A DNA stretch of 64,000 nt from a virus (IMGVR_UViG_3300042868_005676:3201-67200), one strand, 5' to 3'; numbered from the stretch's first letter, positions 1 to 62,966 are shown. The notes: a model not told the origin generated them from the letters alone. Numbers and translations: made by a program.

Positions 1-787
1 AACTTTCATAAACCAATAAATCATTGTTAGTCTCAGAAGTTACAAGAACTCCGTGTAATTCGTTTAACTCATAGCCGTTTTGAATAACGATAACCAAACG
101 ACCTTGTGTTGGGTGAGCCCTAGCAATATACCCGATAAAAACTGCATGATTGGGTTCAGCAGGAATTGTGCTTGTCATTCCTCCAGCTGTAGCGGCAGAT
201 AACCAAACAGCATCTCCAGCCGTAAAAGCCGAAGTGTTTAAGTCATGAAGAGTTCCATTTACTGCAATATAACCATCTGAATTATTATTAATATTCGCTA
301 CAACTATACCTATGGTTTTAGAGGAAGTAGCCTCGGTATGTGCTTGAGACAAGAGAGCATTAGGTCTATTACCTGTTGCTCCACTTAAATAGACTACTTG
401 TCCTTTGGTCAAGGTAGCGCCAGTAGAGTTTCTTACTATAATTTGAGTGGTCTCAGCACTATCTACTACTCCGTCATTATCAACATCATACGTGCTTTTG
501 AGCATATCCCCACCGCCACCAGCAGCAGGGGTTTGATTCTCCCATTGTAAAGTGGTAGAGTTGTAAGCTAAAACTTGAGCATTAGCAGGTGCACTTATTG
601 TTACGTCAGATAAACTATCTAGATTTGTTACGTTACTCGTACCAATAACTAAAGATTCTAATTCAACTACAATTCTGCGAATTCTGGTCTCTTGGTCCTT
701 ATAGTCTTGAACACGAGTTGTCTCATATAGCTTTTTAAGATATATCGCTTGTTTAAGTAACTCTTGTTTTGTGACTTCTAAGGACAT
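1..787 (-). CDS. Tail fibre/spike-like virion protein, partial (runs off window start)
   Basis: Read manually: ATG at 787 overlaps the upstream TAA. MSLEVTKQELLKQ...LDSLSDVTISAPANAQVLAYNSTTLQWEN...VRNSTGATLTKGQVVYLSG are typical fibre segments. Confidence 0.7.
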   Translation of the reverse strand, partial: MSLEVTKQELLKQAIYLKKLYETTRVQDYKDQETRIRRIVVELESLVIGTSNVTNLDSLSDVTISAPANAQVLAYNSTTLQWENQTPAAGGGGDMLKSTYDVDNDGVVDSAETTQIIVRNSTGATLTKGQVVYLSGATGNRPNALLSQAHTEATSSKTIGIVVANINNNSDGYIAVNGTLHDLNTSAFTAGDAVWLSAATAGGMTSTIPAEPNHAVFIGYIARAHPTQGRLVIVIQNGYELNELHGVLVTSETNNDLLVYES

Positions 788-1131
788 TACTTTGCTAAAA
801 TTTGCGTTTGGGTTTGATTAATTTTGAACAATACTCCACCATCAATTCTCTTTACTTCTTTTCCGTTTTCGTAAATAATAATTGTAGGTAAACTTTTTAT
901 GTTCATTTTATTTTTCAACTCTGGATATTTATCCATCCCCAAATAAAAATATTTAGCTTGTGGATTTAATACCCACTTGAATTCGTTTAGTTTATTCCAA
1001 TCGGCATTTATTTGTAATACACACTTACCGTGAGATACAAGTTGCTGTAGATTATTAGGTGTTATAATCTGAGGGGCTGGTTGGGTAAAACTGAGACCCA
1101 AAGCCAAAAATAAAATAGTTAAGTGCTTCAT
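787..1131 (-). CDS. Thioredoxin-fold protein with signal peptide, lacking CxxC
   Basis: CVLQINADWNKLN sits where WCxxC is expected. IKSLPTIIIYENGKEVKRIDG matches the Trx C-terminal motif. Hydrophobic N-terminus. Confidence 0.7.
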   Translation of the reverse strand: MKHLTILFLALGLSFTQPAPQIITPNNLQQLVSHGKCVLQINADWNKLNEFKWVLNPQAKYFYLGMDKYPELKNKMNIKSLPTIIIYENGKEVKRIDGGVLFKINQTQTQILAK

Positions 1132-1430
1132 TTTTGTTCTATACGCTCTACACGCCTTTTTAAATCTTCAATGTATTCACCATAGAGTTGTAATTTCATA
1201 TCGCTCTCTGGTCTTGACGCAGGCCAAGTTTCTTTTGCGGCAGGGTCTCCAGGATCAACTTGATAAAAGCCTTTTCCCACTTTCATGCTCTGTAGTTTCT
1301 CGTCTATTTTAGAGTCGATACTCGCATCGTAAGCATAAAAAGCACCAATCGCAGCCGCTATTATACCAATAATTATCCCTAGTGTTTTAGGAGTAATTAT
1401 CAGTTTACTTTCTTCATTTATTTCTTTCAT
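1128..1430 (-). CDS. Small membrane protein
   Basis: One TM helix (TLGIIIGIIAAAIGAFYAY) and a C-terminal coiled coil. Confidence 0.55.
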   Translation of the reverse strand: MKEINEESKLIITPKTLGIIIGIIAAAIGAFYAYDASIDSKIDEKLQSMKVGKGFYQVDPGDPAAKETWPASRPESDMKLQLYGEYIEDLKRRVERIEQK

Positions 1431-2635
1431 TATGAGATGTCACCAGTAGCCACATAAGTATTAGCAACGCTAGTTGCTACAGATGTAACAAATACTTGTA
1501 ATCCCTTCTGATTAACCAATGCTTTAGGGGCAATTGAAGTAATTGTTCCTCCCTTGAATACAGCAGTATGTGAACCAGGCGTACCCAATTCAACGTAGTC
1601 TGTTCCCATCGTAACAATTCTCACCCAGAATCCCTCTGGAAGTCCGTCTGCAAAATTAATTCTAACTGGAATTGTGTTTGTACAAACTAAGGTTAGTGCT
1701 CCCATTGTATTATCGACATTGAACGTTGTGTTAGATACAACCATTGTCAGATGACGATAATTTACAAAGGTCTGACCACCGCCATTTAAAGCAGTGTTAT
1801 TTCTGAGAACGTTTGAAGATAAACGAGCATCTGCAATAGTACCAGTTGTAATATTATTAGCGGCTAAGTTTGTCAAGTTACTTCCGTTTAACGTAGGTAA
1901 ATGACCACTGCTGTTTAATTGAACTAAATCATCTGCTCCGTTAAAAGTATTACCCATTAAAGTAACAGCAGAAGTTAAACGAGCATCTGCAACAGTACCA
2001 GTAGTGATTGCTGTACCATTCAGATTAGTTATTAAAGAACCATCCAATGCAGGAATCTTACCGGCAGCAGTTGTCTCCATTAACTGAGAAACACCATTGA
2101 ATACGTTTGCCTTTAATGTTACGTTTGATGATAGTCTAGCATCTGCAACAGTACCACTAGTAACTGCTGTTCCATTTAAGTTAGTTATTAGTGTGCCGCT
2201 TAAGGCAGGAATTCTAGAACTAGAATCTGTCTGAATTAATTGGGTTGCTCCGTTAAAAGTATTTCCTTGTACAGTAACGTTTCCGCTCAAACGAGCATCT
2301 GCAACAGTACCACTCGAAATACTCGAAGCGTTCAAGGTAGTTAACAAAGAAGCATCTACAGCAGGTAATTTAGTACTTGCGTCTAACTTCACCAACTTAC
2401 TGGCAGAGTTAAAAGTATTTCCTTCTAAAGTAACACTACTAGTCAAACGTGCATTGTCTAATGTACCCGTATCAATCAAATCTGCATTGATACTAGTTAA
2501 ACTAGAACCAATCTGATCTATAGTAATTTTTTTTGTTGTGCCAGCCGCCCCATCAGATACATCCACAATAGGAATATAATCCGAAGCACTAACAACTACT
2601 ATCGGATCTAATTGGCTTATTTTCTTGTCTTGCAT
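1430..2635 (-). CDS. Tail fibre with about five ~53-aa repeats
   Basis: N-terminal KKISQL motif; repeated GTVADARLS-NVT-GNTFNG...PALDGSLITNLN units. Confidence 0.75.
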   Translation of the reverse strand: MQDKKISQLDPIVVVSASDYIPIVDVSDGAAGTTKKITIDQIGSSLTSINADLIDTGTLDNARLTSSVTLEGNTFNSASKLVKLDASTKLPAVDASLLTTLNASSISSGTVADARLSGNVTVQGNTFNGATQLIQTDSSSRIPALSGTLITNLNGTAVTSGTVADARLSSNVTLKANVFNGVSQLMETTAAGKIPALDGSLITNLNGTAITTGTVADARLTSAVTLMGNTFNGADDLVQLNSSGHLPTLNGSNLTNLAANNITTGTIADARLSSNVLRNNTALNGGGQTFVNYRHLTMVVSNTTFNVDNTMGALTLVCTNTIPVRINFADGLPEGFWVRIVTMGTDYVELGTPGSHTAVFKGGTITSIAPKALVNQKGLQVFVTSVATSVANTYVATGDIS

Positions 2636-2653
2636 AATACAAATATAATAAAA

Positions 2654-3037
2654 TTAGAGGAGAATTCTAAATCCATTCTGCTGTAAATAGAACGCATCTC
2701 CATCTGTTAATAAAAATCCTCCGTTGTTATAACGTAAAGCCAATTCTCTTCCTCTCGTTGTATATGAGAATGTGTATGCCTCATCATCTGAGACCGAACA
2801 GTTACCACAATTCTTAGCAAGTCTATTTGCCTTTTTAATAACCTTATCTAAATCATCAAAGCAGTTCATGTTTTCAAGAGAAAAAAGCAAAAACAAAGCC
2901 TCTTTTTCTTGAGATTCTATATTGCAACAAGGCTTATCATACTTCTGAGCAGAAATTCTTTCTGTCTCAAGAGAAATGATTACCTTTCTAAGAGCTAAAA
3001 AAGTCTTTAAAAATGAATATAGAGTATGGTACTGCAT
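2654..3037 (-). CDS. Cys-rich virion/tail-associated protein
   Basis: ATG at 3037 coupled to the upstream stop (TAATG); C-terminal FLLTDG...LQQNGFRILL. Confidence 0.5.
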   Translation of the reverse strand: MQYHTLYSFLKTFLALRKVIISLETERISAQKYDKPCCNIESQEKEALFLLFSLENMNCFDDLDKVIKKANRLAKNCGNCSVSDDEAYTFSYTTRGRELALRYNNGGFLLTDGDAFYLQQNGFRILL

Positions 3038-3822
3038 TAACAACCACAAGGTTTAATTGATGGATAACACTCGGTTAAAGCATCTTGAATGTCATCATAG
3101 ATTTCTTGTGCTAAATCATATTCGCCACATTCAAAGGCATTTACCATTTTATCATACATCAATTTAATTTCTGCATAATCATTAGAAGTCATATTTCCTA
3201 ATGCCAGTTGACTTAATGTACAAGTCAAATCGTTGGTTCTCAGAGCATAAACAGTTTCTATTACTGGTGAACCATCATTTGTAAATGTAACAACAAATTT
3301 CCATATTCCATCTGTTAAAGTAACACTACTAGTTAAATTATAAGCGTAGTCTATACTTGTCCAGAAAGTAGTAGTATATAAATTAATTGCCGAAAGCGGT
3401 GTTGTTGTTCCGGGCTGTGTTATAGATAAAGAAATAGCACTAATTCTCGCTCTTACATCATTGTAAGGAGTAAATGTATTACTTACTAAAGTAGCGTTAT
3501 TAATATCCACAAAAGGTAAGAGTGTTGCGCTATAAGATAATTTAATCGTATTCGGATCTATTACAGTCACATAAACTTCGTCTCCGCTGCTTGCTGCAAA
3601 CGCCCCAGTACCACCAAAAGTATACGTTACTTGTTGGCCCGTATAGAATCCATGAGAAGGAACAGTCATGGTATCTGCTACTGTACTAGCACTGCTCACC
3701 GACTTAGCGGTAGCAGTTATCCAACCTGTAGGATTTGTAACAGCGTTGTATTCACCAGTAAGATCGTAAATAACCATCTTGGCCTTTTCGTTCTGAATCC
3801 CAATTTTAATATCAAGTGCCAT
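3037..3822 (-). CDS. Structural (tail hub/fibre-associated) protein
   Basis: Beta-rich, ends CYPSIKPCGC, lies in the structural module with an upstream TATCTTTG promoter. Confidence 0.5.
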   Translation of the reverse strand: MALDIKIGIQNEKAKMVIYDLTGEYNAVTNPTGWITATAKSVSSASTVADTMTVPSHGFYTGQQVTYTFGGTGAFAASSGDEVYVTVIDPNTIKLSYSATLLPFVDINNATLVSNTFTPYNDVRARISAISLSITQPGTTTPLSAINLYTTTFWTSIDYAYNLTSSVTLTDGIWKFVVTFTNDGSPVIETVYALRTNDLTCTLSQLALGNMTSNDYAEIKLMYDKMVNAFECGEYDLAQEIYDDIQDALTECYPSIKPCGC

Positions 3823-3845: not shown

Positions 3846-6800
3846 TTAAAAATTACCATAAATTTGTCTGAGCTTATCGAACTGAGTTTCATCAAGCACA
3901 CCTCTTCTTTTCATTTCTAAAAGATTAGCCTTTTCTCTGCTTTGTTTATAATCAATCAACCAAGAGCCATCCGCTTGGTCTGATGTATTTTTATAATAAG
4001 CAAATAATTGTTCTATGTTACCCATAGCCTGTTTTTTATTTTGTTCTCCTTTATAGAATTTCTGTAAATAATTAATATTATCTATACTTTTTTGATATAC
4101 GTCTTGATGAAGATTATAAAGAATATCTCCTCGTTTTTTCAATTCATTTCTATACATATCATTAGGGAGATTATATTTCAAGAATATACCATTTGATTCT
4201 AACGTAAACTCGTTAGGTATTTCTTTAGTTAATACACTCACCAAATCTCCTTCTATAGTCATGTTAGGTTTTTGTGCTATTGTACCACCAGTTAATTCTC
4301 TATACGCTTGAGACAATTGATACATATTAGCACTTATCCCCACCGCAAATCTATATCTTTGTGTTTCACGTTTACTATCTTGCAAACCAATTCTTCTACT
4401 AGCAAAAGGATTAAATATTGTTTCTACATAAGCACCCAAAGTTCCTGGCTCAGCATTTGTAGTTCTAAACTGCAAGTCCTCTCCATAAGGTCCTATTTTT
4501 GCTTTATAGAATTGATTTTTGGCAATAAAACTAACGTTTCTGTTTAGCTTTTGAATCATTCTTACTCCGACTTCTCCGAATACATCACCTAAAATGTTTA
4601 AATCTTCTGTTCTTAAATTTACTTGATTTAAAGATTGTACAGTTTCTGCGTTTGCTTTACTGATAACCGAAAACAATCCTGGAGATGTAAAAGATAAAGC
4701 CGTTGCTGATGTAGATGCAAGAAATTGATTAACACTTGCTTCGTCTCCCTCAGAAAATAATTGTCCAACACGAGCTATGCCTTGCAACATTGGTAATTGT
4801 TGAACACCTGCGTATAAAAATTGTCCTGTTACCAAAGCAAATAAATTACTTTTTATTAAATCAGGAGTAAGTTTATTTCTGTTTTCAACCGTTATCTTTT
4901 CATATTTTCTTGCTCCACTCGCATAACTACCAAAACCATATCCGATCAAGCCCATATTTGAAAATTGTTCTACATTATCTCCGGGTATCCAAGTACCTCT
5001 TTTGATGAAAAACTCTTTTTCTTTACCGTTATACAAAGCCTTCATGTATTCCCAATGTATTGTTCTATTATAAGAACCAGATTTGAAACCTATACTAGCC
5101 AGTGCTATTTCTTCATCATCGCCAGGCAACAATGCTGGGATGAGCGCACCTGCTGCATATGCAGTTGCTGCCAAAGCAAAAACAAAAGCACTTTCTGAAA
5201 TACACGCTTGATCATAAGTCATTTGACGCTTTAGTCCGAAAAGTTGAATTCTATCCTTTTCATATTGCATCTTCTCATCCTTGTTTTTAAATTGAACTAC
5301 CTCTCCATATTTAGAATCAAACTTTTCTTTTGCCGTATTGTAATTTCTTGCGCTGTTATAATAAAAGTAACTAGCAGCTAAAGGATTTACTTTTTGGTTT
5401 GCAGCCATAACCACGTTCCAAGGAACTCTAGCAAACGGAGCAACTGTCCAAACTGTTGTATCTGCTAACTGTATTGCTTGCTTAGCCATTACTTTATTAA
5501 TCTGCGATCCTTCTCCTTCTCTTATTTCTCTAGCTTTTTGTTTTATTTTTTTTCTGAGATATCCTCTTGCAGAACCTAAACCTTGAGATGCAAGATTATC
5601 AGCTAAGAATACTCTTTTGAGACCTTCTTTTTCAAAAAAGTTTTCGTTTCCTAATGTACTTTCTATTAGAACAATTAGTTTTTGTAATGTTTTTTCATCT
5701 ACCTGAGACCCATCACTTACGAAATCACCAAAGTAACCTTTCGATAAATCTTGAGTTGTAAAATAATCTAGCATTGCACGATAAGTAGTAGCATTTGCTA
5801 ATAATTTATCACCTCCAAACGCCATTGCTCTACCGGTAAATTCTGGAATTGAACCGAAAATTCCCCAAAACATAGACCTTGCTGCTGTATATGTTTTACC
5901 ATCGACTAGTTTTAATTTACCGTCTTTTGTTTTATATAAAGCCTGATCAAAAGCATCTGCAAACTCTTCATCAGTCATCTCGGTGATTTTCTTTCCTCCT
6001 ATTTTACCCAAAAGATTAAATACAAAATCTTTAGATAATTTAACATCATCGAAGAAATTAATATTAGCCATTGAGTCCATATACTTTTCTATAAAATCGC
6101 TATTTGCTTGGTTTCCATATTTAAACATTTCCCATATTTCTTGTTTACTCTTATCCCAAGAAAATCTATAAGAATTTAAAAGTAATTGAGGATTTACGGT
6201 ATTTGTTTTGATACCTTTCATATCCCCTAAAGATTGCATACCCTTAAAGAAAACGTTATCACTAAGAATAGCTTGTTCAACGTTAGCGTATAAAGACAAG
6301 AATACAGTTTGAAATCCTAATAAAGCACGACTTCCGGCAGAAGTAACTCTGTCGTTCCAAAACTTAGGTTTCAATGCGTCTAAAAATTTAATTAACTCCT
6401 TGGAAGCATTTTCAAAATTCTTCTTATCTTTTTCATACTGATTAAAATCAACATCAGTAAAAGTTTCCTCAAAGGTCTGTAAAGACTTTTCGGTATTTTG
6501 TTTAGCTGTGTTAAAATTATCAATTAAAACTTTAACTTTTTCTTTTTGAAAAGGACTTAGTGCAACACCTCCTTTGATAATACTTTCAGAAAGCATATTG
6601 CTAAGTTTATCTGGACTTGTGAATAAGCCTCTGTTAATATATAACAATCTACCTGCAATACTTTGAATTTTAGCCAATGTTTTAATTGCACTACTTACGT
6701 CCTCATTGACCTCTTTGTTTGCAATTTTATCTCTAAGCATTTGAGCAGTTGCTAATAAACCTCCAGCCTCTAATTCGTTTGCAACGTTTTCAACATAAAC

Positions 6801-9800
6801 AATACCATCAAGTAAATTAATACCAGACATTTCTGCTTCTGTACGCAAATCAGATTCTCTTTTTACGGCCTTAGCACTTCTTTCGTCACTAGTTAAAGAG
6901 GTGAAATATTCGGAATACTCTTCTGTATTTAAAGCATTCTTAATTGTTTCTCTGTAATCCTTACCGAATAATTCATCTATTTCGCCTTGTTCTGCTATAT
7001 CTAAGTCTTCAAATGCTTTTAGAATTTGAGGATTAGAGTAGCCCTCCCCTAATAATTTTTCTCTTAGGATTTCTAAAGGAAGAATTGCGTTATTGGGTTC
7101 GGTGATAAAATTTCTTATATTTTCTTGAGATTGTATTTTTGCATCAGAAATCTTCTTTGCTACCTCTTTTGCATCTTCAGAAACCATATTGTTCCAGTCT
7201 TGCTGAGAAAATGTAACCTCTCCTAGTTTTCTAGCGATATCATCATATGTATAACCTGCTTTGAATAGATTGCTTAAAGCCTCGTTCTTTGTCTTATTAG
7301 CGGCAATATCTGCTTGGTATTGTGTTCCGATATTGTCAGGATTAAGTTGTGACTTACTTTGGAACTGAGGCCCATTTGCTGGCTCAATGCCCAAGGCAGA
7401 TTCTACACTATTAACAAGTTCGGGATTAGTATTTGTTTCTTTCGCATTAACATATGCTCTAGCAACTTGATTAGAAACAACTTGCTTTGGATTTTTAACA
7501 GAACCATCTTGATTAAAACCATAGGTTTCATATTCAAAAGGCTTAGTCCTAGGTAAATCTTTAGCGTTTCCTTCTTTGTTAATCTGTGCTACTTCTTGTT
7601 CAGTTAAAACTCTATTGACTTTTATTTCGCCAGATATAACCCAACTTCCAGTCATGTTAGAATTTGTCTTATAACTATAAGAACCACCAAAAGGTATTTG
7701 ATCTGTTATGTGTGCAGTTTTAGCAATTGGTTTGCCGTTTTTACCTATGTCTGCTCTTTCATTTGCAATTGTTTGCCAATTAACATCGTCAGCAACTTCT
7801 ACCTCTGCCCATACTTGGTCAGCTGCTCTTAGTGCAGGTGCTTTATCATTTGGATTTATTTTTGCTCCAATATGAGTAGCAACAGCCAATTCGCCTGAAT
7901 GCCAACCCGGTCTATAAGCCAAAGGACCAATCTTAGACTTAACCATAGTTTTTCCTTCTTTGGTTTGTGTCAATTCTCCTGCTTTAGCTTCACTCCATTG
8001 TCCAGTACTTACTGATTCATTTGCATTTACAAATAAAGGAAATAACTCCCCTGGGAATTCTTTTTTAACTTTAAATAACTTATATGCCTTTTTTGTTTTT
8101 GTAGGGGCTTTTATTTCGCCATTTATTAGTTTTTTAAGATTTTCTAATTCGTTATCTGAAAGTGATTTGTTTAAGTTGTCAGATACACTAGCAATTTCTT
8201 TTGCTGATGCTTGAGATTTGCTCTTGAAAGCAACTGCTCCATCTTCAATACCAAACTGCTCATTTGCTTTTTGAAAATCCTCAAAAGTTTTTATTTCTTT
8301 AGATGCGACTTTTTGTGATTTACTTTGAAATTCCTTTTGTCTTTCTGCAATCTTTTTAGCATCAAAATCAGTAATAGGCATTGCGCCCATAATTGCTCTT
8401 GCTGCTTGGTCTTTTTCTCTGAGACCGAAAGGTGTTTGATTTGCTGTAGCAGATACTGGTTTAACATCATAGAAAATTGATCTACCATCCAAGAAATTAT
8501 TGAAGAACTTCATTCCCACTTTCTCTGCTGTTATAACAAAAGGATAAGAAGGATTATAAAATTCGCTATCTTCACTGACCTTTTCTATTTTTATTGTTGA
8601 TGGGTCATAAGTCAAATAACCAACAAAATCTCCATAACCAGCATTTTCAAACAAAGAATCATTTGCATAATCCAAAACGGTCTTATCATAAGTATATCCT
8701 TTTCCTGTCGCTAAACTAGGTAAATTAAATTTTTCATGATTAGTTATATTAAAAATTTTACCGAAGTAATTCGCTCTAAATTCATAACTTACCTTATCTA
8801 CATTTTTATTTTTACCGAAACGATTCTTAAATTCTTCTGTAGAAACAAAAGGATTAAGATAAGCATTCATTTCTTCTAGTGATTCAAAATTCCCTTCGAG
8901 TTTTAAATAATCTCTAAGTGGAACTTTAGTCATAGAACTATCTAAAGGCCTATTTAAAATATCAATTATTTCTTTTTCCGAAACTCCACTCTTAATAGCA
9001 TTTGACAACTCATCGGTAAAATAATTTAACATTTTAACGTTACCCAAAACTCCTGTTTTTTGTTGAGCCCCAATTAACGAACCGTCCACTTTTCGCATCT
9101 TGTTCGCTAATTTTGTTGTAGAGTCTTCAAAAGTAGATGCCCAAAGAGCGGCTGTACCTTTATATAAACCCGTAGCAGGGTCAATTTCAATATTTCTATT
9201 TGCCCACTTTGTAAAACCAGGTCCGCCTCTTCCGTTCAACTCTACTCCAGTAGGAGATGTAACGGTACCAGCCAATTGTAAATCACCTAAGAATCCCATC
9301 ATTGTCTTTCCATCAATTTCTTCTGGATTAACAAAATCTGTATCTTCTAATTTGAAGTCTCTTTTGATTTGAGATTTGCTAGAAAGATTAGGTCCTCTGT
9401 TTGTTTTACTACTCTGAACATCTATTGTCTTCTCTTCATTAAATACCTCATAACCAGGTTCTATTTGTCTACCCTCAACATTTTCAGTTCTTATTGGGTT
9501 GTCTAACGATTGAGCAATTACTTCTTCGCTTTGGTTTTCTTCGGTAACGACTTGAGGTTCTACAAATGGTTCATAATTATCACCTCGTTTGCCTTCCGGT
9601 AGAATCATCCTTATACTTTCCCAACTATTATCTGCTCTTTGTTTTTTCGTTTCTTCTAAAGATAATTCTTTCCCATCTTCAACGGCCCTCATACCCAACT
9701 TGTAATTCAAAGCAACTGCTACATCATTACTCGCCATGCCCGACAACTCACCTTTAGTTTCGTTCAATGCTCTCTTTAAAAGTGCAGTTGCTATTCCTTT

Positions 9801-35776: not shown

Positions 35777-35816
35777 TCTGAGACCCAAAGCAAACTATCA
35801 TAAACCAACAAAAAAC

Positions 35817-42911: not shown

Positions 42912-42922
42912 AGAATTTTAAT

Positions 42923-52000: not shown

Positions 52001-52440
52001 ATTGCGAAATCTTTTGAGGTCACAAATATACACAAATCTTTTGGAACACGAAAAAATTTATCCACACCTTTTCTTTCTTGAGTATAAATGCGTATAGTTT
52101 CTTTAAATCCTTCGTTAAAAATAACATCTGATTTGCAGAAAATAGCTGCTTGGGTCTCAGAACATATGATCACATACCAAAATGAATTATCTTTCCACTT
52201 GGCTTTTCTGCTGAGGAACGATACAGAATCAAAAGGAAAGTCTTCTTTACAAGTCCATGGCCTTTTAGATTTCATCTCCACCTCCCAAAAGTATTTCTTA
52301 TCGTCTTTTTCCGAAAAGAAATCTATACCATAAACGTCACAATTCTCCAAAATATTGTGACCATTTGAAACTAAAAAAGCCTTAAGTAATTCCTTACCTT
52401 TGGCATCATTACGATTAAAACTTTCTTGATTAAACTTCAT
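51997..52440 (-). CDS. PD-(D/E)xK nuclease-like protein
   Basis: YGIDFF...WEVEMK. Confidence 0.55.
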   Translation of the reverse strand: MKFNQESFNRNDAKGKELLKAFLVSNGHNILENCDVYGIDFFSEKDDKKYFWEVEMKSKRPWTCKEDFPFDSVSFLSRKAKWKDNSFWYVIICSETQAAIFCKSDVIFNEGFKETIRIYTQERKGVDKFFRVPKDLCIFVTSKDFAI

Positions 52441-53815: not shown

Positions 53816-54040
53816 CTAATCAAACTTAAGACCATGTTCGGTCATTATCTCATGGAGCTTATCTCTTGTGTCTATTAGTGCTTGATAAGTATCTCCTGAT
53901 ATTGTGTCTGGGGCGTACTTAGTCTGAGACCGAAGGTGTTGGTCTAACTCCCACATACAGAGTGACCACCTGCTACCATTTACAGCAAGATCAAATTCCA
54001 TTTGATCCTCTGGCAGATTAAATTCTAAGACAGCTTTCAT
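53816..54040 (-). CDS. Small conserved phage protein
   Basis: MKAVLEFNLPEDQ...WELDQHLR...KY. Confidence 0.65.
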   Translation of the reverse strand: MKAVLEFNLPEDQMEFDLAVNGSRWSLCMWELDQHLRSQTKYAPDTISGDTYQALIDTRDKLHEIMTEHGLKFD

Positions 54041-54042
54041 TT

Positions 54043-54134
54043 GCCACATAGAAAGGATTCGAACCTTTATCTTTCACCTACAATGATGGAGCGTTACCAC
54101 GTCAGGGACATCCCTAACCTTACGCCACTATGTG
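54043..54134 (-). tRNA. tRNA-like element with expanded D-loop and degenerate anticodon arm (identity unassignable)
   Basis: Acceptor CACATAG/CTATGTG, D-stem GCGT/ACGC, T-arm AAAGG-TTCGAAT-CCTTT. Confidence 0.6.
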
Positions 54135-54510: not shown

Positions 54511-56367
54511 TTAAATTATTTCACAAGCACCGCCAGCACAAGCTGATTCGCCCATAAGATTAGTATTGTCACTAATTTCGATAACTTTTGTGACATCAAT
54601 CTGATGAATGTTTTTAGACATCTCATCGTACTCTTCCTTCGTAATTGTTTCAAATGGAGTCTGTGGATAAGAACCTAAGTTTTCAGGCAAGAAGGATAAG
54701 CCATTGTAATGATTTTGATTTTCCCACAACCATTCTCCTACCATTGCCCACTCGTTCTTCTTAACAGTAACTGTTGCTGAAACGTTATGTGTATTGTCTC
54801 CATAGATATGACCAGGCTTAATCCATTTCTCGTGAATAAGTTTAACACGCTCAAGGAATTCAATAGCACTTTCCAAACTCCTAGTAATAGCCCCCTTGGG
54901 CGCAGCTACCGGAATACTTACTACCGAGTTGATAGTGGGTTGGTATACGCAATCCTCAAGAAGTTCTGGATGATGGATTGATAAGTAAGTATAAATGGCT
55001 TCGTTCTTACCAATTCGCATTCTGCGAACATAATACTCATCATGCCAAGCGTGTACACCAGACGAAGTACCTAGAACCAAAGATGAAGTTCCGCTAGGTT
55101 TAACAGTAGTGATACGAGCAGCAGTATTAATTCCAATAGTAGCAGCAGTAAATGAATTTACTCTAATTGTAGCCTCAGCAGCCTCGGCCATATCTAAATC
55201 AAAAATCTTACCACTTGCAATACCAGTCATACCAACACCTAATAGTGCCTCACGTTCTGTTACTTCTTTCCAGATAGGTCTCAGATAATGAAAGTCTGTA
55301 TAAGATGCCTGCAGTGTACCAATGAATGCAGCAGTCTCAGCCCTCGCTTCAAAATCAAATTGGTCTCTGATATCTGAAGCATTGATTTCCACTAAGTTAC
55401 AAAACTGGTGTGAATTCAAACTGATTTCTGCGCAAGGATTTGTTCCTAACTCTAAATCGTTTGTAAAGAAGAAACCTGGTTCTCCGGCATTACTATCTTC
55501 AACTTTTTTCCATAGATTCAAAAACAATTGCTTATCTACAGATCCACGCTTTAATTTTACACTGTTGTTAGCTCTTCCTCTTTGAGGATTAAGATCATAC
55601 CACTCTCCAGACTTACAAGTCAACATTTCCTCATCATCTTCATCAAAGAGAGCAATCATTGCTGATCTACGAATTCCTCCACTTAACACAGCGTTAGCAA
55701 TGTGACATAGGATATCGTGACACTCCAAAGAAGTCAATTGTTGTCCGTCTTGTTTGCGTTCAAGAACAGCCTCGATGTGTGCTAAGCAAATCTTTAATGG
55801 CTCTGGTCCTGGTGCTACTCCACCACTTGTAATTAGTCTTTCACCCTTCGCTCTAATAGCACGGTAATCAAAGTTTGGTTTCCATGTGCTGAGACCCAAA
55901 TAAGACTTCATTAATACTTTTATGGCATCAGCCCATCCCTCAATATTGTCTGGAATTAAATACCTTCTGTGTTTTTTAGAACGAGAAATAGCAGGTAGTT
56001 TGCTTATGTGGTTTTTGCTGACACTATAGCCGACACCCGTCCCAGACAATAACAAAAACATTGTTTCATTGAATGCCCTATAATCATCAATATGTAGATA
56101 GCTACAATTAAATAAACGAGCATTGTTAACCTCAATTGGCTTACCACCGAACTGAAGCGAACGCATAGAAGGCAATACTTTTTTTTCATAGACTAGTTCG
56201 TAGTTTGTTCTGATTAATTTTTCTAACTGAGGAAACTTACGAATATGCATTTCCATATTACGGGTCACAATTTCTTCCCAGGTCTCTCTTCTTTGTTTAC
56301 CATTAATGTATTTAGCGTATTTGCTCCATACAACAGTTGAGGATAAAATTTCGTGATTTAATTCCAT
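54511..56367 (-). CDS. nrdJ: Class II (B12-dependent) ribonucleotide reductase
   Basis: LPSMR, FNC, GTGVG, GGIRRSA, TNPCAEI, TVKPSGT and C-terminal ACAGGACE; no adjacent beta-subunit gene. Confidence 0.9.
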   Translation of the reverse strand: MELNHEILSSTVVWSKYAKYINGKQRRETWEEIVTRNMEMHIRKFPQLEKLIRTNYELVYEKKVLPSMRSLQFGGKPIEVNNARLFNCSYLHIDDYRAFNETMFLLLSGTGVGYSVSKNHISKLPAISRSKKHRRYLIPDNIEGWADAIKVLMKSYLGLSTWKPNFDYRAIRAKGERLITSGGVAPGPEPLKICLAHIEAVLERKQDGQQLTSLECHDILCHIANAVLSGGIRRSAMIALFDEDDEEMLTCKSGEWYDLNPQRGRANNSVKLKRGSVDKQLFLNLWKKVEDSNAGEPGFFFTNDLELGTNPCAEISLNSHQFCNLVEINASDIRDQFDFEARAETAAFIGTLQASYTDFHYLRPIWKEVTEREALLGVGMTGIASGKIFDLDMAEAAEATIRVNSFTAATIGINTAARITTVKPSGTSSLVLGTSSGVHAWHDEYYVRRMRIGKNEAIYTYLSIHHPELLEDCVYQPTINSVVSIPVAAPKGAITRSLESAIEFLERVKLIHEKWIKPGHIYGDNTHNVSATVTVKKNEWAMVGEWLWENQNHYNGLSFLPENLGSYPQTPFETITKEEYDEMSKNIHQIDVTKVIEISDNTNLMGESACAGGACEII

Positions 56368-56369
56368 AA

Positions 56370-56768
56370 TTAAAATGCTTTTCCGTGTTTATAACCTCTC
56401 ATTGAATTATACTTCATTTTCAATTCGATGTGCTGTTCAAGGTTAATATTTAAACCGCCACATAAATCAAACAGTCTGATTGCAACATCTGCAATCTCAT
56501 CTTCAAAAGAAGACTTGATATTCTTTTCGAATACCGTTTTCCAATCTTCTGCATCAAATTTGAATTCCTCATCATGCTGTAACAGAGCTAAGTCTTGTTG
56601 CAAATGAGTTGCAATTGTCTTATCTGCATAATGATTTTTACGGAGTGCCTCTTGGGCCTCAGCGAGTTCGCTCACAATTAACATTAACAATTCCGAAAGA
56701 TTTCTTTCGTTTTCCCAGAAGCCTTTTTCTTTGGCTGTGCTGTGTGCTTTTTCTATTAAATTTCTCAT
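56370..56768 (-). CDS. MazG-like NTP pyrophosphohydrolase
   Basis: LIVSELAEAQEALRK...EDEIADVAIRLFD...KMKYN..R..KHGK; ATG at 56768 after a promoter. Confidence 0.85.
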   Translation of the reverse strand: MRNLIEKAHSTAKEKGFWENERNLSELLMLIVSELAEAQEALRKNHYADKTIATHLQQDLALLQHDEEFKFDAEDWKTVFEKNIKSSFEDEIADVAIRLFDLCGGLNINLEQHIELKMKYNSMRGYKHGKAF

Positions 56769-56817
56769 AGGGGCTACAAATATAATCTGAGACCCATCGA
56801 AAAAACAAATAAAGTTT

Positions 56818-57093
56818 TTATTTTTTTGTTGTTTTACCATTATGACCATTTCTTGAGCGATTTTTAGATCTGTTCTCAAGTGTCATTTTACCAGACTTGG
56901 TATGGCTTAAATCTTTTCCAGCAGCATAACGCTTGCCGTATATGCCTCGCTTCTTTGCTTCTCCATTTAGTTCTGCTCTGTATTTTTTACGGGCAGGAGA
57001 AGACTGGTACGCTTTTTCTTTGGAATAGTCACGTCCTGTAGCCTTGTTAGACCCAGGACGTTTACTTTTCCCTATAATTTTGTTTTTAGGCAT
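56818..57093 (-). CDS. Small basic protein with HNH-like tail
   Basis: K/R-rich; GKDLSH...NRSRN. Confidence 0.55.
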   Translation of the reverse strand: MPKNKIIGKSKRPGSNKATGRDYSKEKAYQSSPARKKYRAELNGEAKKRGIYGKRYAAGKDLSHTKSGKMTLENRSKNRSRNGHNGKTTKK

Positions 57094-58780: not shown

Positions 58781-60241
58781 TTAGTATGCCACTTCGACTA
58801 ATGAAACTTTTGCAACTATTCGCATAGTTACACTACCTCCACCAGCAAATGTTGGGCCAGTGAATGTCATTGCTAATTGTTGAGATGCTCCTGCTGTGTA
58901 TGTCATAGAACAAGTGTCCATGATTAAACTATCTGAGGCCGATGCATCTCGTATAAAATTTCGTACAGAACTTGTACCACCAATTCTCTTGAATCCAAAT
59001 AGCGATTCTCCTGTGATTATATCTCCTACAGTTATACCTGTGGCAGTTCCCGTAATTCCAGTTACTACAGCTACCCAATCAACTGATACATTCCATGCTC
59101 TGTTTGTTGCAAGTGAATATGAAATATTGGGAATAATTAAATTTGTTACTCCAGTTCCGTCCAATGATAAAACTGTTGTTCCTCCAGTTGTTAACGTATC
59201 ATTTTTTGAAGATACCAATTGAGAAGCTTGAGAGCCACCGTTTATATTTACTCCGTTTGAAATTGCAAATTGATTGTGTAAAGTTGCCCTTGAATTTGTA
59301 TTAAAAGAAATTGATAAAGTTTCATCTGACTTACCTTCATTAAAAGCTATAGATTGAATTCCACTTGCATTGCCTTTATTAATTACCATTGAATTAGAAC
59401 CAGTTGCGCTAGAACCAGAAGTACTATTTAAAACCATAGATTGACTACCGCTTGCAGTGGCATACATACTATTTAAAACACAACTTATTCCAGCATTAGC
59501 CGTATTACCTTCTCCGCCAATAACTATAGAACGATTATTTGAGGCTATATTACCTCCCGATCCACCCATGCATAAAGAATTTGTACCTGAGGCTGTATTG
59601 CTATTTCCCCCAGCAATTGAACGCTGCCCACTTGCAGTATTGCTTGATCCGCCTATTACACTAGCGTGAGTATTAGTAGAAGTAGCATTACCTTCACCAC
59701 CTCCAATAAATCCCCTATCGCTATTGTTATTGTTATTTAATCCACCTGTTGTTACAGCATGATTCTGGAGAGCACGATTTTGTTGTCCGCCTCCTACATA
59801 ACTATAAACACCACTTGCCTTATTTGATACACCACCGCCAACTACAGAGTAGTTACCGCTAGCAACCTCGTCAGCATTATTTCTAGTCTTCTGTAAATCA
59901 ACAGAAAATAAACCCCTGCTATTACCCCCAAAGTTTGTATTGTCGGGAGCATTTCTCATCAGAGGGCCATTATTATTAGTACTTAAAATAAGTCCGTTAT
60001 CTACAACGCTAGACTGAATTAAAGCCGCAGCTTGAACCGTACTAGCAGAACTATTTTTAAGTGATAGTGTATTACCAACAAGAAGAGGGTTTGAATTTAC
60101 ATAACCATCAATCAACTCCTTGGGAGCAATCTTTTTGGTTTCTACGTCTGAAGTATCTACTACTGGTAACCAGTCTACTACAGAATCTAAGTTAGATCCC
60201 GTAAGTACATTGAGTTGTGATATTTTCTGATTGGTTGCCAT
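58781..60241 (-). CDS. Tail fibre/receptor-binding protein with YadA-head-like GG repeats
   Basis: KISQL N-terminus, VVGGG-N-A repeats, C-terminal domain shared with 57561..58775. Confidence 0.7.
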   Translation of the reverse strand: MATNQKISQLNVLTGSNLDSVVDWLPVVDTSDVETKKIAPKELIDGYVNSNPLLVGNTLSLKNSSASTVQAAALIQSSVVDNGLILSTNNNGPLMRNAPDNTNFGGNSRGLFSVDLQKTRNNADEVASGNYSVVGGGVSNKASGVYSYVGGGQQNRALQNHAVTTGGLNNNNNSDRGFIGGGEGNATSTNTHASVIGGSSNTASGQRSIAGGNSNTASGTNSLCMGGSGGNIASNNRSIVIGGEGNTANAGISCVLNSMYATASGSQSMVLNSTSGSSATGSNSMVINKGNASGIQSIAFNEGKSDETLSISFNTNSRATLHNQFAISNGVNINGGSQASQLVSSKNDTLTTGGTTVLSLDGTGVTNLIIPNISYSLATNRAWNVSVDWVAVVTGITGTATGITVGDIITGESLFGFKRIGGTSSVRNFIRDASASDSLIMDTCSMTYTAGASQQLAMTFTGPTFAGGGSVTMRIVAKVSLVEVAY

Positions 60242-60369
60242 TAGTATTCTTTTAACATTTGTGCGCCAGTCTCTAATAATAAATTAAAGCCAGTCTCTAA
60301 CTGAATAGGAAAATCGAAGAATATTCTTCTAATCCTTCTGCGAGATATTGGTAATCCAAAACCAATCAT
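60241..60369 (-). CDS. 42-aa putative fibre adaptor peptide
   Basis: Manual translation MIGFGLPISRRRIRRIFFDFPIQLETGFNLLLETGAQMLKEY; TAATG coupling on both sides. Confidence 0.5.
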   Translation of the reverse strand: MIGFGLPISRRRIRRIFFDFPIQLETGFNLLLETGAQMLKEY

Positions 60370-60653
60370 TATGGATAATAAGCAATTATGCTACCAGAGT
60401 TTAATCTAATCGAAGTGAAGTATTTTTCCTTCGCAGAACTAATTAACATTCCTTGTCTAATTGTTAATCCACTGAGACCCATTGTACTAGTAATGTCAAC
60501 TCCTTTATCATCAATGATTTCTGCAACTTCACAATCAGCATTTACAACAAATGCTTGGAATGCTCCAGTTACAGCGATTGTACCAGCGATTGCTCTGCAA
60601 CCTGTTAGTCCACCTTGAAAGTCTATTGACCTAGATTCAATTATGTCTGCCAT
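60369..60653 (-). CDS. Small structural protein
   Basis: FTSIRLNSGSIIAY C-terminus; promoter 4 nt upstream. Confidence 0.5.
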   Translation of the reverse strand: MADIIESRSIDFQGGLTGCRAIAGTIAVTGAFQAFVVNADCEVAEIIDDKGVDITSTMGLSGLTIRQGMLISSAKEKYFTSIRLNSGSIIAYYP

Positions 60654-60677: not shown

Positions 60678-60824
60678 TTATTTTCCTTGACCTCTATATA
60701 GCTTCTTATAATTCTTACTAGACTTTGATTTGCTAGTCTTAGTTTTAGCACTTACACCAGGTCTTTTTATTGTGGGTTTTGGTTTCCACCTAACCGCTTC
60801 CTTAGTTGCTTTTGCTTTTGCCAT
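60678..60824 (-). CDS. 48-aa basic protein
   Basis: Manual translation MAKAKATKEAVRWKPKPTIKRPGVSAKTKTSKSKSSKNYKKLYRGQGK. Confidence 0.6.
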   Translation of the reverse strand: MAKAKATKEAVRWKPKPTIKRPGVSAKTKTSKSKSSKNYKKLYRGQGK

Positions 60825-60990
60825 TTTTCATCATTCTGTAGAATGTAATAAGCGACACGACTATAGCGAGCATAAAAGAAATGAATTGAACAAGAGGCAA
60901 TAGTTCTGAGGCCCATCCTACAATTGTAAAAATCCAAGCACTTACCGTACCCTCAACCTCATTAGGCATTTTAATGAATAAGTTTTTCAT
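60802..60990 (-). CDS. Small membrane protein (holin-like)
   Basis: Two hydrophobic segments and a basic C-terminus. Confidence 0.45.
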   Translation of the reverse strand: MKNLFIKMPNEVEGTVSAWIFTIVGWASELLPLVQFISFMLAIVVSLITFYRMMKNGKSKSN

Positions 60991-61741: not shown

Positions 61742-61766
61742 ATAACAAATATAAGTATTTTTATAC

Positions 61767-62360
61767 TTATATCAAAATGAAGTCAATCACTTCACCGTTC
61801 TTGAAATACTTAACTACGTTAAACCAATACTTGTCTGGAACCACTTGACAACCAGCAGACCACCTATCGACAAATGATCCAAGTCCCGCCCTGTGTAAAT
61901 TAATTCCGAATAGACCTTCTGTTACGATATTCTTATCGATAACGTCATCTTTGTTTCCGTCTCTGTAAATCTTGATTGATTTAGTTTGTTGAAAATAAGG
62001 AGCACCTAACCATAAAGATTTCCAATTTGAGTTTGTATGGAATGTGTGAGACCCAACCACTTTTTGACGGCAAGCAATCGCAGTTCCTGTAATTCCTGCA
62101 TAGGTAATTGGATTCTTGACGTAGTGAGAACCTGCTGTTGTTGAACAAGGGAATACAGATGTTACTCTTCCTCCTACGAACAAAACTCCAAAATCATCAT
62201 AGGTATTTGTTAACCTTTCGTCACATCTTACCCATACAATTCCTTTTTGTGGTTTTTCTGGTAGATATTTCTCTAACGCAGCAATGGTCATTGGGCCAAC
62301 AACACCGTCTGGTTCTAGTTTGGCCCCTAACACGTTTAGGTAGATTTGTACTTGTTTCAT
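61767..62360 (-). CDS. Endolysin: PG-binding domain plus L,D-transpeptidase-like His/Cys domain
   Basis: DGVVGPMT PG-binding motif; GINLHRAG...WSAGCQV; ATG at 62360. Confidence 0.7.
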   Translation of the reverse strand: MKQVQIYLNVLGAKLEPDGVVGPMTIAALEKYLPEKPQKGIVWVRCDERLTNTYDDFGVLFVGGRVTSVFPCSTTAGSHYVKNPITYAGITGTAIACRQKVVGSHTFHTNSNWKSLWLGAPYFQQTKSIKIYRDGNKDDVIDKNIVTEGLFGINLHRAGLGSFVDRWSAGCQVVPDKYWFNVVKYFKNGEVIDFILI

Positions 62361-62436
62361 TATTAACAAAGATAACATTTTAAAACAAAAAACGCAAACC
62401 ATTGTAGATTTGCGTTTTCCTTAAATATTATTTGAT

Positions 62437-62700
62437 TTATTTAATCTCGGCTAAGATTTGAGCCTTACTTAAGATTGTTAATTGCTCTGAGTCTTTAATA
62501 AAGTTTCTCAAAGTTTCTGAATCGCTAGGATCTAGTTCTACTTCTTCTCCAGCGTAGAACTTTGTGCTCCAATGCCAGAACTTAGCAGCATCGCCTTTGT
62601 TTGCACTAGCTAATGTACTAGCTACTAATTTACCCATGTGGGAGTTTTCGATCTCTTGTCCGTCTAAACCTACAAGATTTTTGTTTAATTGTATTTTCAT
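62437..62700 (-). CDS. Hypothetical (fibre-associated) protein
   Basis: ORF downstream of the fibre gene. Confidence 0.45.
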   Translation of the reverse strand: MKIQLNKNLVGLDGQEIENSHMGKLVASTLASANKGDAAKFWHWSTKFYAGEEVELDPSDSETLRNFIKDSEQLTILSKAQILAEIK

Positions 62701-62966
62701 ATTTTAGTAAATCCTAATTCGTTTAATGCCCATTCGTAGCAGTAGTCATCATCTGAGGCCCATTGACTATAGGTCTCTTGATTCATGGTCAAGTTACCAT
62801 CAAGAATACACACTGCTGGAACTGATTGTTCCTCTACAATGTCTTCTGTGAATAACTGCCAATAAAAGCTAACGCTTGTTGGGTTCATTGGGAAGTTTAA
62901 AGCTAATAAATTAAAGTAAATTCCCGTTCCTTTGGTTGGAACTATTTCTGGTTGAATCTTGATCAT
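62697..62966 (-). CDS. Tail-fibre chaperone-like protein
   Basis: GNLTM...Y..W..DDDY...W....LG. Confidence 0.45.
   Translation of the reverse strand: MIKIQPEIVPTKGTGIYFNLLALNFPMNPTSVSFYWQLFTEDIVEEQSVPAVCILDGNLTMNQETYSQWASDDDYCYEWALNELGFTKI

Follow-up and report, generated by a model that had tools for sequence, protein, structure and literature searches.

The genome of an uncultured freshwater phage, virus record IMGVR_UViG_3300042868_005676, is dotted with a short asymmetric DNA word, CTGAGNCC (read on the opposite strand as GGNCTCAG), which acts in cis as a recognition site on DNA, spans about 12 bp and is maintained by selection, on either strand, about once every 1.5-2 kb. The stretch analysed, hereafter the window, consists of 64,000 nucleotides and corresponds to bases 3201-67200 of a 67,200-base record, which is estimated to be 98% complete and has 35.4% G+C. 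The word matches 45 times in the window, 31 times on the + strand and 14 times on the - strand, and no further copy is present in the remaining 3.2 kb of the record. Some factor must read such a word, and we infer that the reader is a sequence-specific factor which is none of the methyltransferases of the phage and probably no conserved core replication protein.

The frequency of the word is far above that given by any background model applied. Dinucleotide-preserving shuffles of the window (n = 100) contained 2.84 copies on average (sd 1.67, maximum 9), with none of the 100 reaching 45, while Markov models of order 0 to 4 predicted 2.4-5.3 copies. The extended form, CTGAGNCC[CG]A, was expected 0.39 times and observed 31 times. 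When all 6-, 7- and 8-mers and all 8-mers with one N were ranked over the 67.2-kb genome, the word had the highest z-score (26.8), and the ranks just below were occupied by its own sub-words. In the 20 papers listed of 3,576 letter matches in the literature, neither 'GGNCTCAG' nor 'CTGAGNCC' occurred in the text, the letters leading only to primers and microRNA papers, and a query on overrepresented octamers in Bacteroidetes phages returned one unrelated review only.

Nearly all copies (44 of 45) lie inside open reading frames (ORFs), and coding sequence does not account for them. Shuffling synonymous codons within each ORF with the protein kept (n = 500) left 3.46 copies on average and never more than 11, vs 44 observed, and shuffling the codon order within ORFs left a mean of 1.90. 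Each of the three frames is represented among the sense copies (7, 10 and 17 times), and the 10 antisense copies fall 9 times in one frame and once in a second, the third being unused because the word would there contain TGA. In 1,172 ORFs of related loci, 268 sense copies were found vs 28.2 expected and 123 antisense copies vs 20.1, with each possible frame 6-18 fold enriched. Chance, composition, codon usage and a protein motif are therefore ruled out as the cause by the shuffles, the Markov models and the frame counts. A first-pass annotation of the window, made from its sequence, had listed about 45 copies and about 31 extended ones, and both counts agree to the base, with exactly 31 extended forms; the ambiguous N indeed takes all four bases (T 25, C 12, A 5 and G 3 on the GGN strand). 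It had named codon-preserving shuffles, Markov models and conservation of the sites in related phages as checks on the enrichment, and the word withstands the first two and is conserved above background in the third, as described below. Its proposal that selection acts on nucleic acid rather than on protein is confirmed, as all frames and both strands are enriched and amino-acid changes have created copies. The placement that it described, in unrelated genes and between genes, holds for the many genes that contain the 44 copies, and the intergenic part comes down to a single copy.

At first the word appeared polar, with strand ratios of 31:14 for all copies, 25:5 for those in the long gene blocks and 9:6 for those in the block of opposite orientation. 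This asymmetry is due to coding constraints: the raw sense to antisense ratio of 34:10 matches the coding-only prediction of 2.59:0.88 from codon shuffles, and the polarity vanishes when nulls are computed per gene block. With such nulls in five word-rich genomes, the major block contains 92 sense copies vs 6.9 expected and 24 antisense copies vs 2.6, and the minor block contains 35 vs 3.9 and 26 vs 3.0, which correspond to enrichments of 13.4, 9.2, 9.0 and 8.6 fold for major-sense, major-antisense, minor-sense and minor-antisense copies, respectively. Strand polarity was dropped, since all four classes of strand and gene orientation are enriched 8.6-13.4 fold; the strand splits in relatives are 14/25, 14/30, 9/19 and 22/10. 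Because both strands and every stop-free frame are enriched, the word is non-polar, which weakens the usual polar models such as Chi and the FtsK-orienting polar sequences (KOPS). A signal at the level of mRNA is ruled out as well, antisense copies being as enriched as sense copies. The word is a DNA signal without detectable polarity.

The full site of about 12 bp can be written as TT(G/C)GGNCTCAGA. The consensus derived from 382 distinct contexts of the site reads T (67%), T (63%), G/C (64/20%), GG, N, CTCAG and A (70%), in which N is T in 37%, C in 34%, G in 17% and A in 13% of the contexts. Single-letter variants occur 1-12 times each in the genome vs 45 times for the word itself, and in 880 kb of the phage group the word was found 537 times vs 46 expected, while its 21 one-mismatch variants stood at 0.6-3.3 times expectation and were not enriched. 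All seven fixed letters of the word are required, and the specificity is sharp. The site is non-palindromic, and its left half, TGGG, and its right half, CTCA, near-mirror each other; two symmetric versions of the word showed no enrichment (0.5-1.5 times expectation).

The word is a lineage-wide feature of a phage group and not the quirk of a single genome. The portal of the phage itself weakly matches a P22-like one, and a capsid protein matches an SU10-like one. Among cultured phages, those of Flavobacterium psychrophilum are the closest (portal identity 22%), and the DNA of the phage is found in lake-water and freshwater metagenomes. In 57 IMG/VR loci with portals 66-80% identical to that of the window phage, 409 copies were counted vs 36.5 expected in 699 kb. 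Whole related records contained 39, 44, 28 and 21 copies vs 0-3 for a reversed control pattern, complete genomes of 67-69 kb carry 39-45 copies each, and two relatives assemble with terminal repeats. A deeper lineage, G006 (99% complete), which is 55% identical to the window phage in the portal, 66% in the capsid, 51% in the primase-helicase and 43% in the polymerase, has 32 copies vs 3.2 expected. When IMG/VR was scanned with a conserved ORF of 611 amino acids (aa) and 80 of 122 relatives (58-77% identity) were taken, these loci held 657 copies vs 46.9 expected in 957 kb; 72 of the 80 had at least 3 copies together with at least 5-fold enrichment, and the word-rich state occurs in all deep branches of the tree of this ORF. 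Outside the phage group, the word falls to chance level or is missing: there were no copies in 88 kb of Flavobacterium phage Fpv3, none in 93 kb of crAss002 and one in a further 52 kb, and the next portal relatives (about 20% identity) had none in 34 kb and none in 12 kb. Moreover, the 15-letter consensus form was found in 52 IMG/VR loci, of which 18 were word-rich, and 18 of these 18 share genes with the window genome; among the 52, no locus without such shared genes had more than 3 copies.

Individual copies turn over. For the 11 window copies with homologous segments in the first 57 loci, the word stands at the same place in 40 of 298 segments, and the copy in the portal gene arose via three amino-acid changes relative to the commonest versions of that segment in relatives. 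Where blastn aligned two relatives at 82-88% identity, the partner had an intact word for 72% of 288 copies vs 45% for random windows drawn from the same alignments, and the corresponding values were 52% of 517 copies vs 24% at 70-82% identity and 85% of 111 copies vs 61% at 88-93% identity; the alignment pairs are non-independent, so these percentages are effect sizes and not probabilities. Copies change place, yet existing ones outlast the neighbouring sequence and are under purifying selection. Close neighbours are scarce: over five genomes, 14 gaps below 300 bases were observed vs 29.3 simulated (P = 0.0002), which fits diminishing returns from neighbouring sites. In 880 kb, 14 extended pairs lie within 600 bases. 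Beyond this short range the spacing is near random, with a mean of 1.4-2.1 kb and wordless stretches of 7-12 kb in large gene blocks. Density is 0.5-0.9 per kb, the conserved capsid and portal region being nearly wordless; the window has no copy in the 7-kb gap 21792-28839, and the wordless stretch of its genome (G000) is taken, from the ORF coordinates, to cover capsid genes. Turnover, retention and short-range avoidance of this kind suggest many weakly selected, interchangeable sites.

One clade has lost the word. G011 (95% complete) contains 6 copies vs 3.24 expected, and 54.6 kb of sequence from it and two close kin taken together yielded 3. In its neighbour G012 (99% complete), 14 copies were counted vs 3.25 expected, or about 4-fold. 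The G011 clade is sister to the word-rich G006 on the tree of the 611-aa ORF. One of 7 mappable G012 copies is common to G006, and at the same 7 places G011 retains one identical word and three relics that differ by one letter (CTGAA...), a pattern that fits decay after relaxed selection. No core gene was lost with the word, as G011 keeps the primase-helicase, the polymerase, the YqaJ-like exonuclease, the recombinase, the protein with a DnaA domain IV (DnaA-IV) and the 611-aa ORF. GGCGGTG, GGTGGNGG and CCGGG-type words were considered as replacements in this clade and rejected, being only 2-10 fold enriched, also found in word-rich genomes, or glycine-codon-like. A four-gene block common only to G006 and G011 is 56-95% identical at the amino-acid level (77-95% in three of the four genes). 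Lying at 39391-41906 in G006 (L128/L129), this block is mostly above the genome average of 60-70%, which points to recent mosaic exchange between word-rich and word-poor lineages.

The clades also differ in the palindromes that they avoid. CTGCAG is avoided in the four richest clades (observed/expected 15/82, 9/42, 0/11 and 1/17) and not in the G011 and G012 clades (16/10 and 7/7), which avoid TTCGAA (0/22 and 1/9). The different palindrome avoidance, together with small ORFs that are missing beside a tail-fibre-like gene in G011, fits a different host. In the window genome, the values are 0/35 for CGCG, 0/16.7 for ACATGT, 0/8.8 for GCATGC, 0/8.1 for GGATCC, 0/8.1 for GAGCTC, 0/3.2 for CCCGGG, 2/14.5 for CTGCAG, 4/32.7 for AAGCTT and 4/31.2 for AGATCT, and G006 tolerates CGCG (89/85) but avoids AGCT (14/212). 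Such extreme, lineage-specific palindrome avoidance is a readable record of the restriction systems that each lineage meets.

The 45 copies of the window are listed below with their gene context.

Copies of the word in the window, with the ORF in which each lies and, where counted, the number of homologous segments or relatives with the word at the same place
Copy	Position	Strand	Context	Same place
CTGAGACC	449..456	-	antisense, ORF ending at 787 (-)	
CTGAGACC	1091..1098	+	coding strand of ORF 787..1131 (-) reads GGNCTCAG	
CTGAGACC	2788..2795	+	sense, ORF 2654..3049 (-)	
CTGAGACC	5703..5710	+	sense, 3276-aa ORF 3846..13676 (-)	
CTGAGGCC	7365..7372	+	sense, ORF 3846..13676 (-)	
CTGAGACC	8419..8426	+	sense, ORF 3846..13676 (-)	
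CTGAGTCC	10373..10380	+	sense, ORF 3846..13676 (-)	
CTGAGGCC	10812..10819	+	sense, ORF 3846..13676 (-)	
CTGAGGCC	15328..15335	+	sense, ORF 15160..16809 (-)	
CTGAGCCC	16516..16523	+	sense, ORF 15160..16809 (-)	
CTGAGACC	18067..18074	+	sense, ORF 16831..21402 (-)	1/14 homologous segments
CTGAGACC	21457..21464	+	sense, ORF 21402..21899 (-)	0/21 relatives
CTGAGACC	21792..21799	+	sense, ORF 21402..21899 (-)	0/21 relatives
CTGAGACC	28839..28846	+	sense, portal gene 27436..29631 (-); created via amino-acid changes	0/53 relatives
CTGAGGCC	30176..30183	+	sense, ORF 30009..30395 (-)	9/57 relatives
CTGAGACC	30698..30705	+	sense, ORF 30340..30753 (-)	0/47 relatives
CTGAGGCC	33292..33299	+	antisense, C5 methyltransferase gene 33165..34100 (+)	8/22 relatives
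CTGAGACC	33827..33834	-	sense, C5 methyltransferase gene 33165..34100 (+)	8/20 relatives
CTGAGGCC	34255..34262	-	sense, ORF 34081..34374 (+); N varies at this place	12/29 relatives
CTGAGACC	35778..35785	+	sole intergenic copy, between 35776 and 35817	
CTGAGACC	36397..36404	+	antisense, ORF 35817..36533 (+)	
CTGAGTCC	38063..38070	-	sense, ORF 37803..38279 (+)	
CTGAGTCC	38751..38758	+	antisense, ORF 38465..39103 (+)	
CTGAGTCC	38824..38831	-	sense, ORF 38465..39103 (+); closest pair, 73 bases from 38751 copy	
CTGAGACC	39829..39836	-	sense, ORF 39752..40036 (+)	
CTGAGACC	40624..40631	-	sense, ORF 40053..40676 (+)	
CTGAGACC	41070..41077	-	sense, ORF 40945..41340 (+)	
CTGAGACC	42573..42580	+	antisense, DnaA-domain-IV gene 42284..42637 (+)	
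CTGAGCCC	44068..44075	-	sense, ORF 43877..44299 (+)	
CTGAGGCC	47246..47253	+	antisense, DNA polymerase gene 46807..48738 (+)	
CTGAGCCC	48003..48010	-	sense, DNA polymerase gene 46807..48738 (+)	
CTGAGACC	49147..49154	-	antisense, conserved 611-aa ORF 49057..50892 (-)	
CTGAGTCC	49539..49546	+	sense, ORF 49057..50892 (-)	
CTGAGACC	51092..51099	+	sense, ORF 50892..51215 (-)	
CTGAGGCC	51665..51672	+	sense, ORF 51339..51710 (-)	
CTGAGACC	52153..52160	-	antisense, ORF 51997..52440 (-)	
CTGAGACC	53924..53931	+	sense, small ORF 53816..54049 (-) beside tRNA-Val	2/9 relatives
CTGAGACC	55277..55284	-	antisense, ribonucleotide reductase gene 54511..56367 (-)	
CTGAGACC	55889..55896	+	sense, ribonucleotide reductase gene 54511..56367 (-)	
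CTGAGGCC	56655..56662	-	antisense, ORF 56370..56879 (-)	
CTGAGACC	56787..56794	+	sense, ORF 56370..56879 (-)	
CTGAGGCC	58933..58940	+	sense, ORF 58781..60241 (-)	
CTGAGACC	60472..60479	+	sense, ORF 60369..60653 (-)	
CTGAGGCC	60906..60913	+	sense, ORF 60802..60990 (-)	
CTGAGGCC	62753..62760	+	sense, ORF 62697..62966 (-)	

The phage group possesses several genes that could be expected to read such a word, and the first-pass annotation had proposed the C5 methyltransferases, the stand-alone DnaA-IV protein and the YqaJ-like exonuclease among its candidate partners. The methyltransferase family PF00145 is over the cut-off in two of five genomes, sub-threshold in G002 (100% complete, 39 words) and absent from G006 (32 words). 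The C5 methyltransferases are therefore excluded as readers, and with them goes the suggested methyltransferase-coupled word of the HIP1 type. The second methyltransferase, a GIY-YIG-HTH protein, the ribonucleotide reductase and the 3276-aa protein are likewise without a homologue in G006. The G003 homologue of the C5 methyltransferase (42787-43332) contains an in-frame TAA inside the family match. The stand-alone DnaA-IV protein (42284-42637, +) is present in all four genomes whose completeness is 90% or more, and the word-poor G011 and G012 retain it at 32-35% identity. It keeps the DHSTVIHS recognition helix typical of true DnaA, which in Escherichia coli DnaA contacts the bases of TTATCCACA. 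DnaA boxes are therefore a more likely target for it than the word, and the proposal that it is the partner loses ground despite its conservation. Perfect TTATCCACA boxes are found at four places (34655, 50950, 52058 and 54662), and the loose box TTWTNCACA shows no enrichment (10 vs 10.6 expected). The DnaA-IV protein, for which a search found no homologue of greater length, may be a competitor or mimic of host DnaA. The YqaJ-like exonuclease (31915-32898, E = 3.9e-17) is probably not the reader either, as it is retained in the word-poor sub-clade.

Among the other conserved genes, the primase-helicase ORF at 44911-46650 combines a CxxC...CxxC zinc ribbon, a Toprim domain and a DnaB-like helicase and occurs in every relative; its zinc ribbon is near-identical in the word-rich G006 and the word-poor G011/G012 and does not co-vary with the word. 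A serine recombinase of 230 aa (41620-42312, +), which overlaps 42284-42637, is kept in all relatives, the word-poor ones included. It consists of a resolvase domain and the start of a 'Recombinase' domain, and its match to phage integrase profiles is limited to their N-terminal part; this truncated enzyme sits in an otherwise lytic-looking phage. The 611-aa ORF (49057-50892, -) is 58-77% conserved in at least 122 IMG/VR relatives and gave no Pfam, PHROGs, NCBIfam or PDB-sequence match, and its AlphaFold model, built from five sequences, was unusable (mean pLDDT 33.1, pTM 0.20). Our guess is that it may encode the large terminase. Together with its 107-aa neighbour it is 58-76% conserved in G011. 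Three small ORFs of 87-94 aa (60369-60653, 62437-62700 and 62697-62966) occur in all complete word-rich genomes and in G012, and not in G011. They adjoin a tail-fibre-like gene and match hypothetical viral proteins only. G011 and G012 also have several small early ORFs that occur in no other genome of the set, none with a family match; for these and the three small ORFs, no match was found in the protein Atlas, Pfam, PHROGs or NCBIfam. The window ribonucleotide reductase (54511-56367, -) is intein-free, and several homologues in related contigs are 936-940 aa long with intein and LAGLIDADG families (PF14890, PF14528). A tRNA-Val with anticodon GAC (54043-54134, -) is the only tRNA by ARAGORN and Rfam, and no other Rfam family in the window was over threshold.

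With respect to the host, about 10 operon-leading genes have TAnnTTTG 12-13 bases before the ATG, and a Shine-Dalgarno-like motif precedes only 3 of 88 ORFs. We take this combination to be the promoter and translation style of Bacteroidota, which the phage group probably infects. One ribonucleotide reductase homologue is labelled as coming from a Cytophagia metagenome-assembled genome (MAG); it is one of the best 120 of 8,000 homologues, which are at least 76% identical where aligned and lie on contigs of at most about 70 kb, and on the grounds of this identity and these contig sizes they are taken as belonging to the same phage group. A portal scan of contigs from 185,579 species genomes revealed no integrated copy, and its one match is a mis-binned contig. 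This contig, L059, is 23 kb long, belongs to the phage group, has 38.9% G+C and 14 words in a 17.6-kb stretch, and is filed in a Sphingomonadaceae-labelled MAG, G001, in which two sampled 20-kb stretches have 62-65% G+C and 314 words were counted in 3.4 Mb vs 119 for the reversed control; the gap in G+C indicates a binning error and no host link. A plasmid search with the recombinase gave no Bacteroidota among the 30 matches listed. In a metagenome scan that gave at least 119 stretches, 70 of the 80 listed were neither word-rich nor of the phage group, and no word-rich bacterial contig appeared among those listed; 7 stretches without group genes passed a lenient threshold with 3-5 words vs 0.55-2.5 expected, the best of which, L327, is almost non-coding.

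What the word does may be read in several ways. We tentatively favour, as a possibility and not as a likelihood, a host-lineage-dependent, Chi-like protective signal that is active in either orientation. The reader would then depend on the host lineage: a helicase-nuclease of the host that processes DNA ends (AddAB/RecBCD type), or a comparable defence nuclease, would be attenuated by the word, which would tell it that 'this DNA is to be spared'. Either orientation could work because ends or breaks in replicating phage DNA would be enterable from both sides, and a sub-clade that switched to hosts with another set of restriction systems would have lost a word it no longer needed. The authors of PMC2887965 knew of no Chi for the AddAB of Bacteroidota, and hence no known Chi contradicts the idea. 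Several observations nevertheless weigh against a Chi-like signal. Known Chi-rich phages are one-sided, and all four classes are enriched 8.6-13.4 fold here; the phage has a YqaJ-type exonuclease, and Chi-rich lambdoid phages are without a recombination module. If the reader were a host enzyme of general importance, the word might be expected in unrelated phages of the same hosts, but word-rich IMG/VR contigs lie only within the phage group (18 of 52 loci) and two cultured Bacteroidota phages have 0 copies (88 kb and 93 kb). No replacement word was found in the word-poor clade, the contrast between that clade and the others goes back to one evolutionary loss, and the correlation between word and palindrome avoidance is imperfect, L238/L239 having 0.43 words per kb and yet a CTGCAG count of 11/6.

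A doubtful but serious alternative is a site-specific enzyme encoded by the phage, namely a nickase or base-modification enzyme whose accessory gene was lost or inactivated in the word-poor clade. It would fit the confinement of the word to one phage group and a format that matches the nick-associated motifs of tf and Rembedalsseter (PMC3517423, PMC11780129), and the three small ORFs, found in every complete word-rich genome and absent from G011, could be its gene. All nicked phages described, however, carry their motif on one strand, both being equally enriched here; G012 has the three ORFs yet only 4-fold enrichment, and the ORFs, which have a tail-fibre-like gene as neighbour, resemble hypothetical viral proteins only. 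The word-rich G006, moreover, has neither the GIY-YIG-HTH protein nor the methyltransferases. The same three ORFs of 87-94 aa, absent from G011, are candidates for a different kind of protein, which we regard as rather unlikely: a small phage protein binding the 12-bp site about every 1.5 kb, so that the word would be a non-polar 'genome identity' mark owned by the phage that tells phage from host DNA, in nuclease protection, selective replication or selective packaging, and the G011 clade would have abandoned the system. A start signal for the T7-gp4-like primase-helicase of the phage, priming the lagging strand every 1-2 kb on both strands, would suit the mean spacing of 1.4-2.1 kb, the non-polarity and the conservation of ORF 44911-46650, with its zinc ribbon, Toprim and DnaB-like helicase, in every relative. 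It is improbable all the same, since T7 gp4-type primases read trinucleotides and not 8-12 bases, the zinc ribbon of G011/G012 is almost identical to that of G006 with no alternative word, and gaps of 7-12 kb are wordless. Equally improbable is an uptake-like product of molecular drive or biased gene conversion, whose copies accumulate without serving the phage, although uptake sequences, with both orientations, a location in genes and poorly conserved positions, are statistically the closest match (PMC2817400), the density of 0.5-0.9 per kb resembles the saturation of uptake signal sequences (USS) near 750 per Mb (PMC6776037), and hardly any copy lies in the conserved region of capsid and portal genes. 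USS-accumulating phages are temperate according to PMC6776037, while here the scan of 185,579 species genomes gave no integrated copy. The phage has only a truncated serine recombinase of 230 aa, one-mismatch variants are unenriched and existing copies are under purifying selection. We know of no sequence-specific DNA uptake in Bacteroidota, which also counts against drive. We consider it very improbable that the word is a dispersed packaging site for the small terminase, at which headful packaging would start at many places in phage DNA and rarely in host DNA; the weakly P22-like portal, the terminal repeats of two relatives (compatible with circular permutation as well) and a non-polar duplex word could be accommodated, but neither terminase subunit could be identified, the 611-aa ORF, which matches no family, is conserved in the word-poor G011 along with its 107-aa neighbour, and to our knowledge a dispersed packaging word is without precedent. 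The partners of the first-pass annotation deserve hardly any credence, whether as a C5 methyltransferase target of the HIP1 type or as a binding site of the DnaA-IV protein. The three sites in or beside the C5 methyltransferase gene are the most position-conserved (8/22, 8/20 and 12/29) and DnaA-IV is found in 4 of 4 genomes at least 90% complete, but PF00145 passes the cut-off in only 2 of 5 genomes and is absent from the word-rich G006, the word is non-palindromic with unenriched symmetric variants, and DnaA-IV keeps its DHSTVIHS helix and persists in G011 and G012; the methyltransferase reading is already largely refuted.

Dispersed over-represented words are rare and strong clues to DNA transactions that are invisible to annotation. 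Such words led to the discovery of Chi, uptake sequences, KOPS and phage nick motifs, and the present one is as strongly enriched as any of these; it is non-polar, belongs to an abundant uncultured freshwater phage group, and comes with a natural control in the sister clade that lost it. If a host enzyme is the reader, the word would represent an unknown Chi-type signal of a Bacteroidota lineage and a tag for linking phages to hosts in metagenomes, and if a phage protein is the reader, it would represent a new self-marking system. Under either reading, the 12-bp site (duplex TTGGGTCTCAGA) and its inactive one-mismatch variants are ready-made pull-down probes.

Compared with known systems, the word is not filed as a member of Chi, the nick motifs or the uptake sequences, because it shares neither the one-strandedness and absent recombination module of Chi-rich phages nor the single-strand rule of nick motifs nor the graded specificity of uptake sequences, and the phage shows no sign of the temperate lifestyle associated with the latter. 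The Chi-rich lambdoid phage LLS has 23 sites, one per 1.86 kb vs 0.85 sites expected, 20 of them on one strand, and MD8 has 32 vs 0 on its two strands; these phages are described as lacking a recombination module of their own (PMC12315714). As with phage Chi, the word is an exact, short and asymmetric one, 20-30 fold over expectation at about one per 1.5-2 kb, which lies inside genes, occurs in some relatives only and would bring more benefit with more copies (PMC12315714). It differs in lying on both strands and throughout the genome, where 87-100% of phage Chi sites share a strand and the sites cluster towards one end, and in the company of a YqaJ exonuclease, where Chi-rich phages have no recombination genes (PMC12315714).

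Phage tf carries 14 copies of the 9-mer TACTRTGMC and Rembedalsseter 13 copies of WACTRTGAC, of which 60 relatives have about 9 vs 0.7 expected despite diverged DNA (PMC3517423, PMC11780129). Like the nick-associated motifs of T5, phiKMV-like and tf/LUZ24-like phages, the word is family-specific and kept in diverged relatives, and like these 9-mers, which are about 13-20 fold enriched, it is found inside and outside genes; unlike them (4-14 per genome, all on one strand), it has 30-45 copies on both strands (PMC3517423, PMC11780129). Uptake sequences occur in both orientations and in genes, preferentially poorly conserved genes or positions (PMC2817400). Hin-type USS saturate near 750 per Mb in Pasteurellaceae hosts and phages, which fall into USS-rich and USS-poor phage clusters, those accumulating USS being temperate and the likely lytic ones USS-poor (PMC6776037). 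Similar to USS and the DNA uptake sequences (DUS) of Pasteurellaceae and Neisseria, the word is non-polar, present at about 0.5-1 per kb in all frames and in less conserved genes, with rich and poor phage clades, while it differs from sequences that depend on competent hosts and on temperate phages passing through a prophage state by showing no sign of lysogeny and no enrichment of near-miss variants (PMC2817400, PMC6776037). The word also resembles KOPS and the SpoIIIE recognition sequences (SRS), the signals of FtsK and SpoIIIE (e.g. GGGNAGGG), as well as HIP1 (GCGATCGC), in being a genome-wide over-represented 8-mer, KOPS sharing its internal N. KOPS are strictly polar signals of chromosome arms and HIP1 is a palindrome, whereas the present word is both non-polar and asymmetric.

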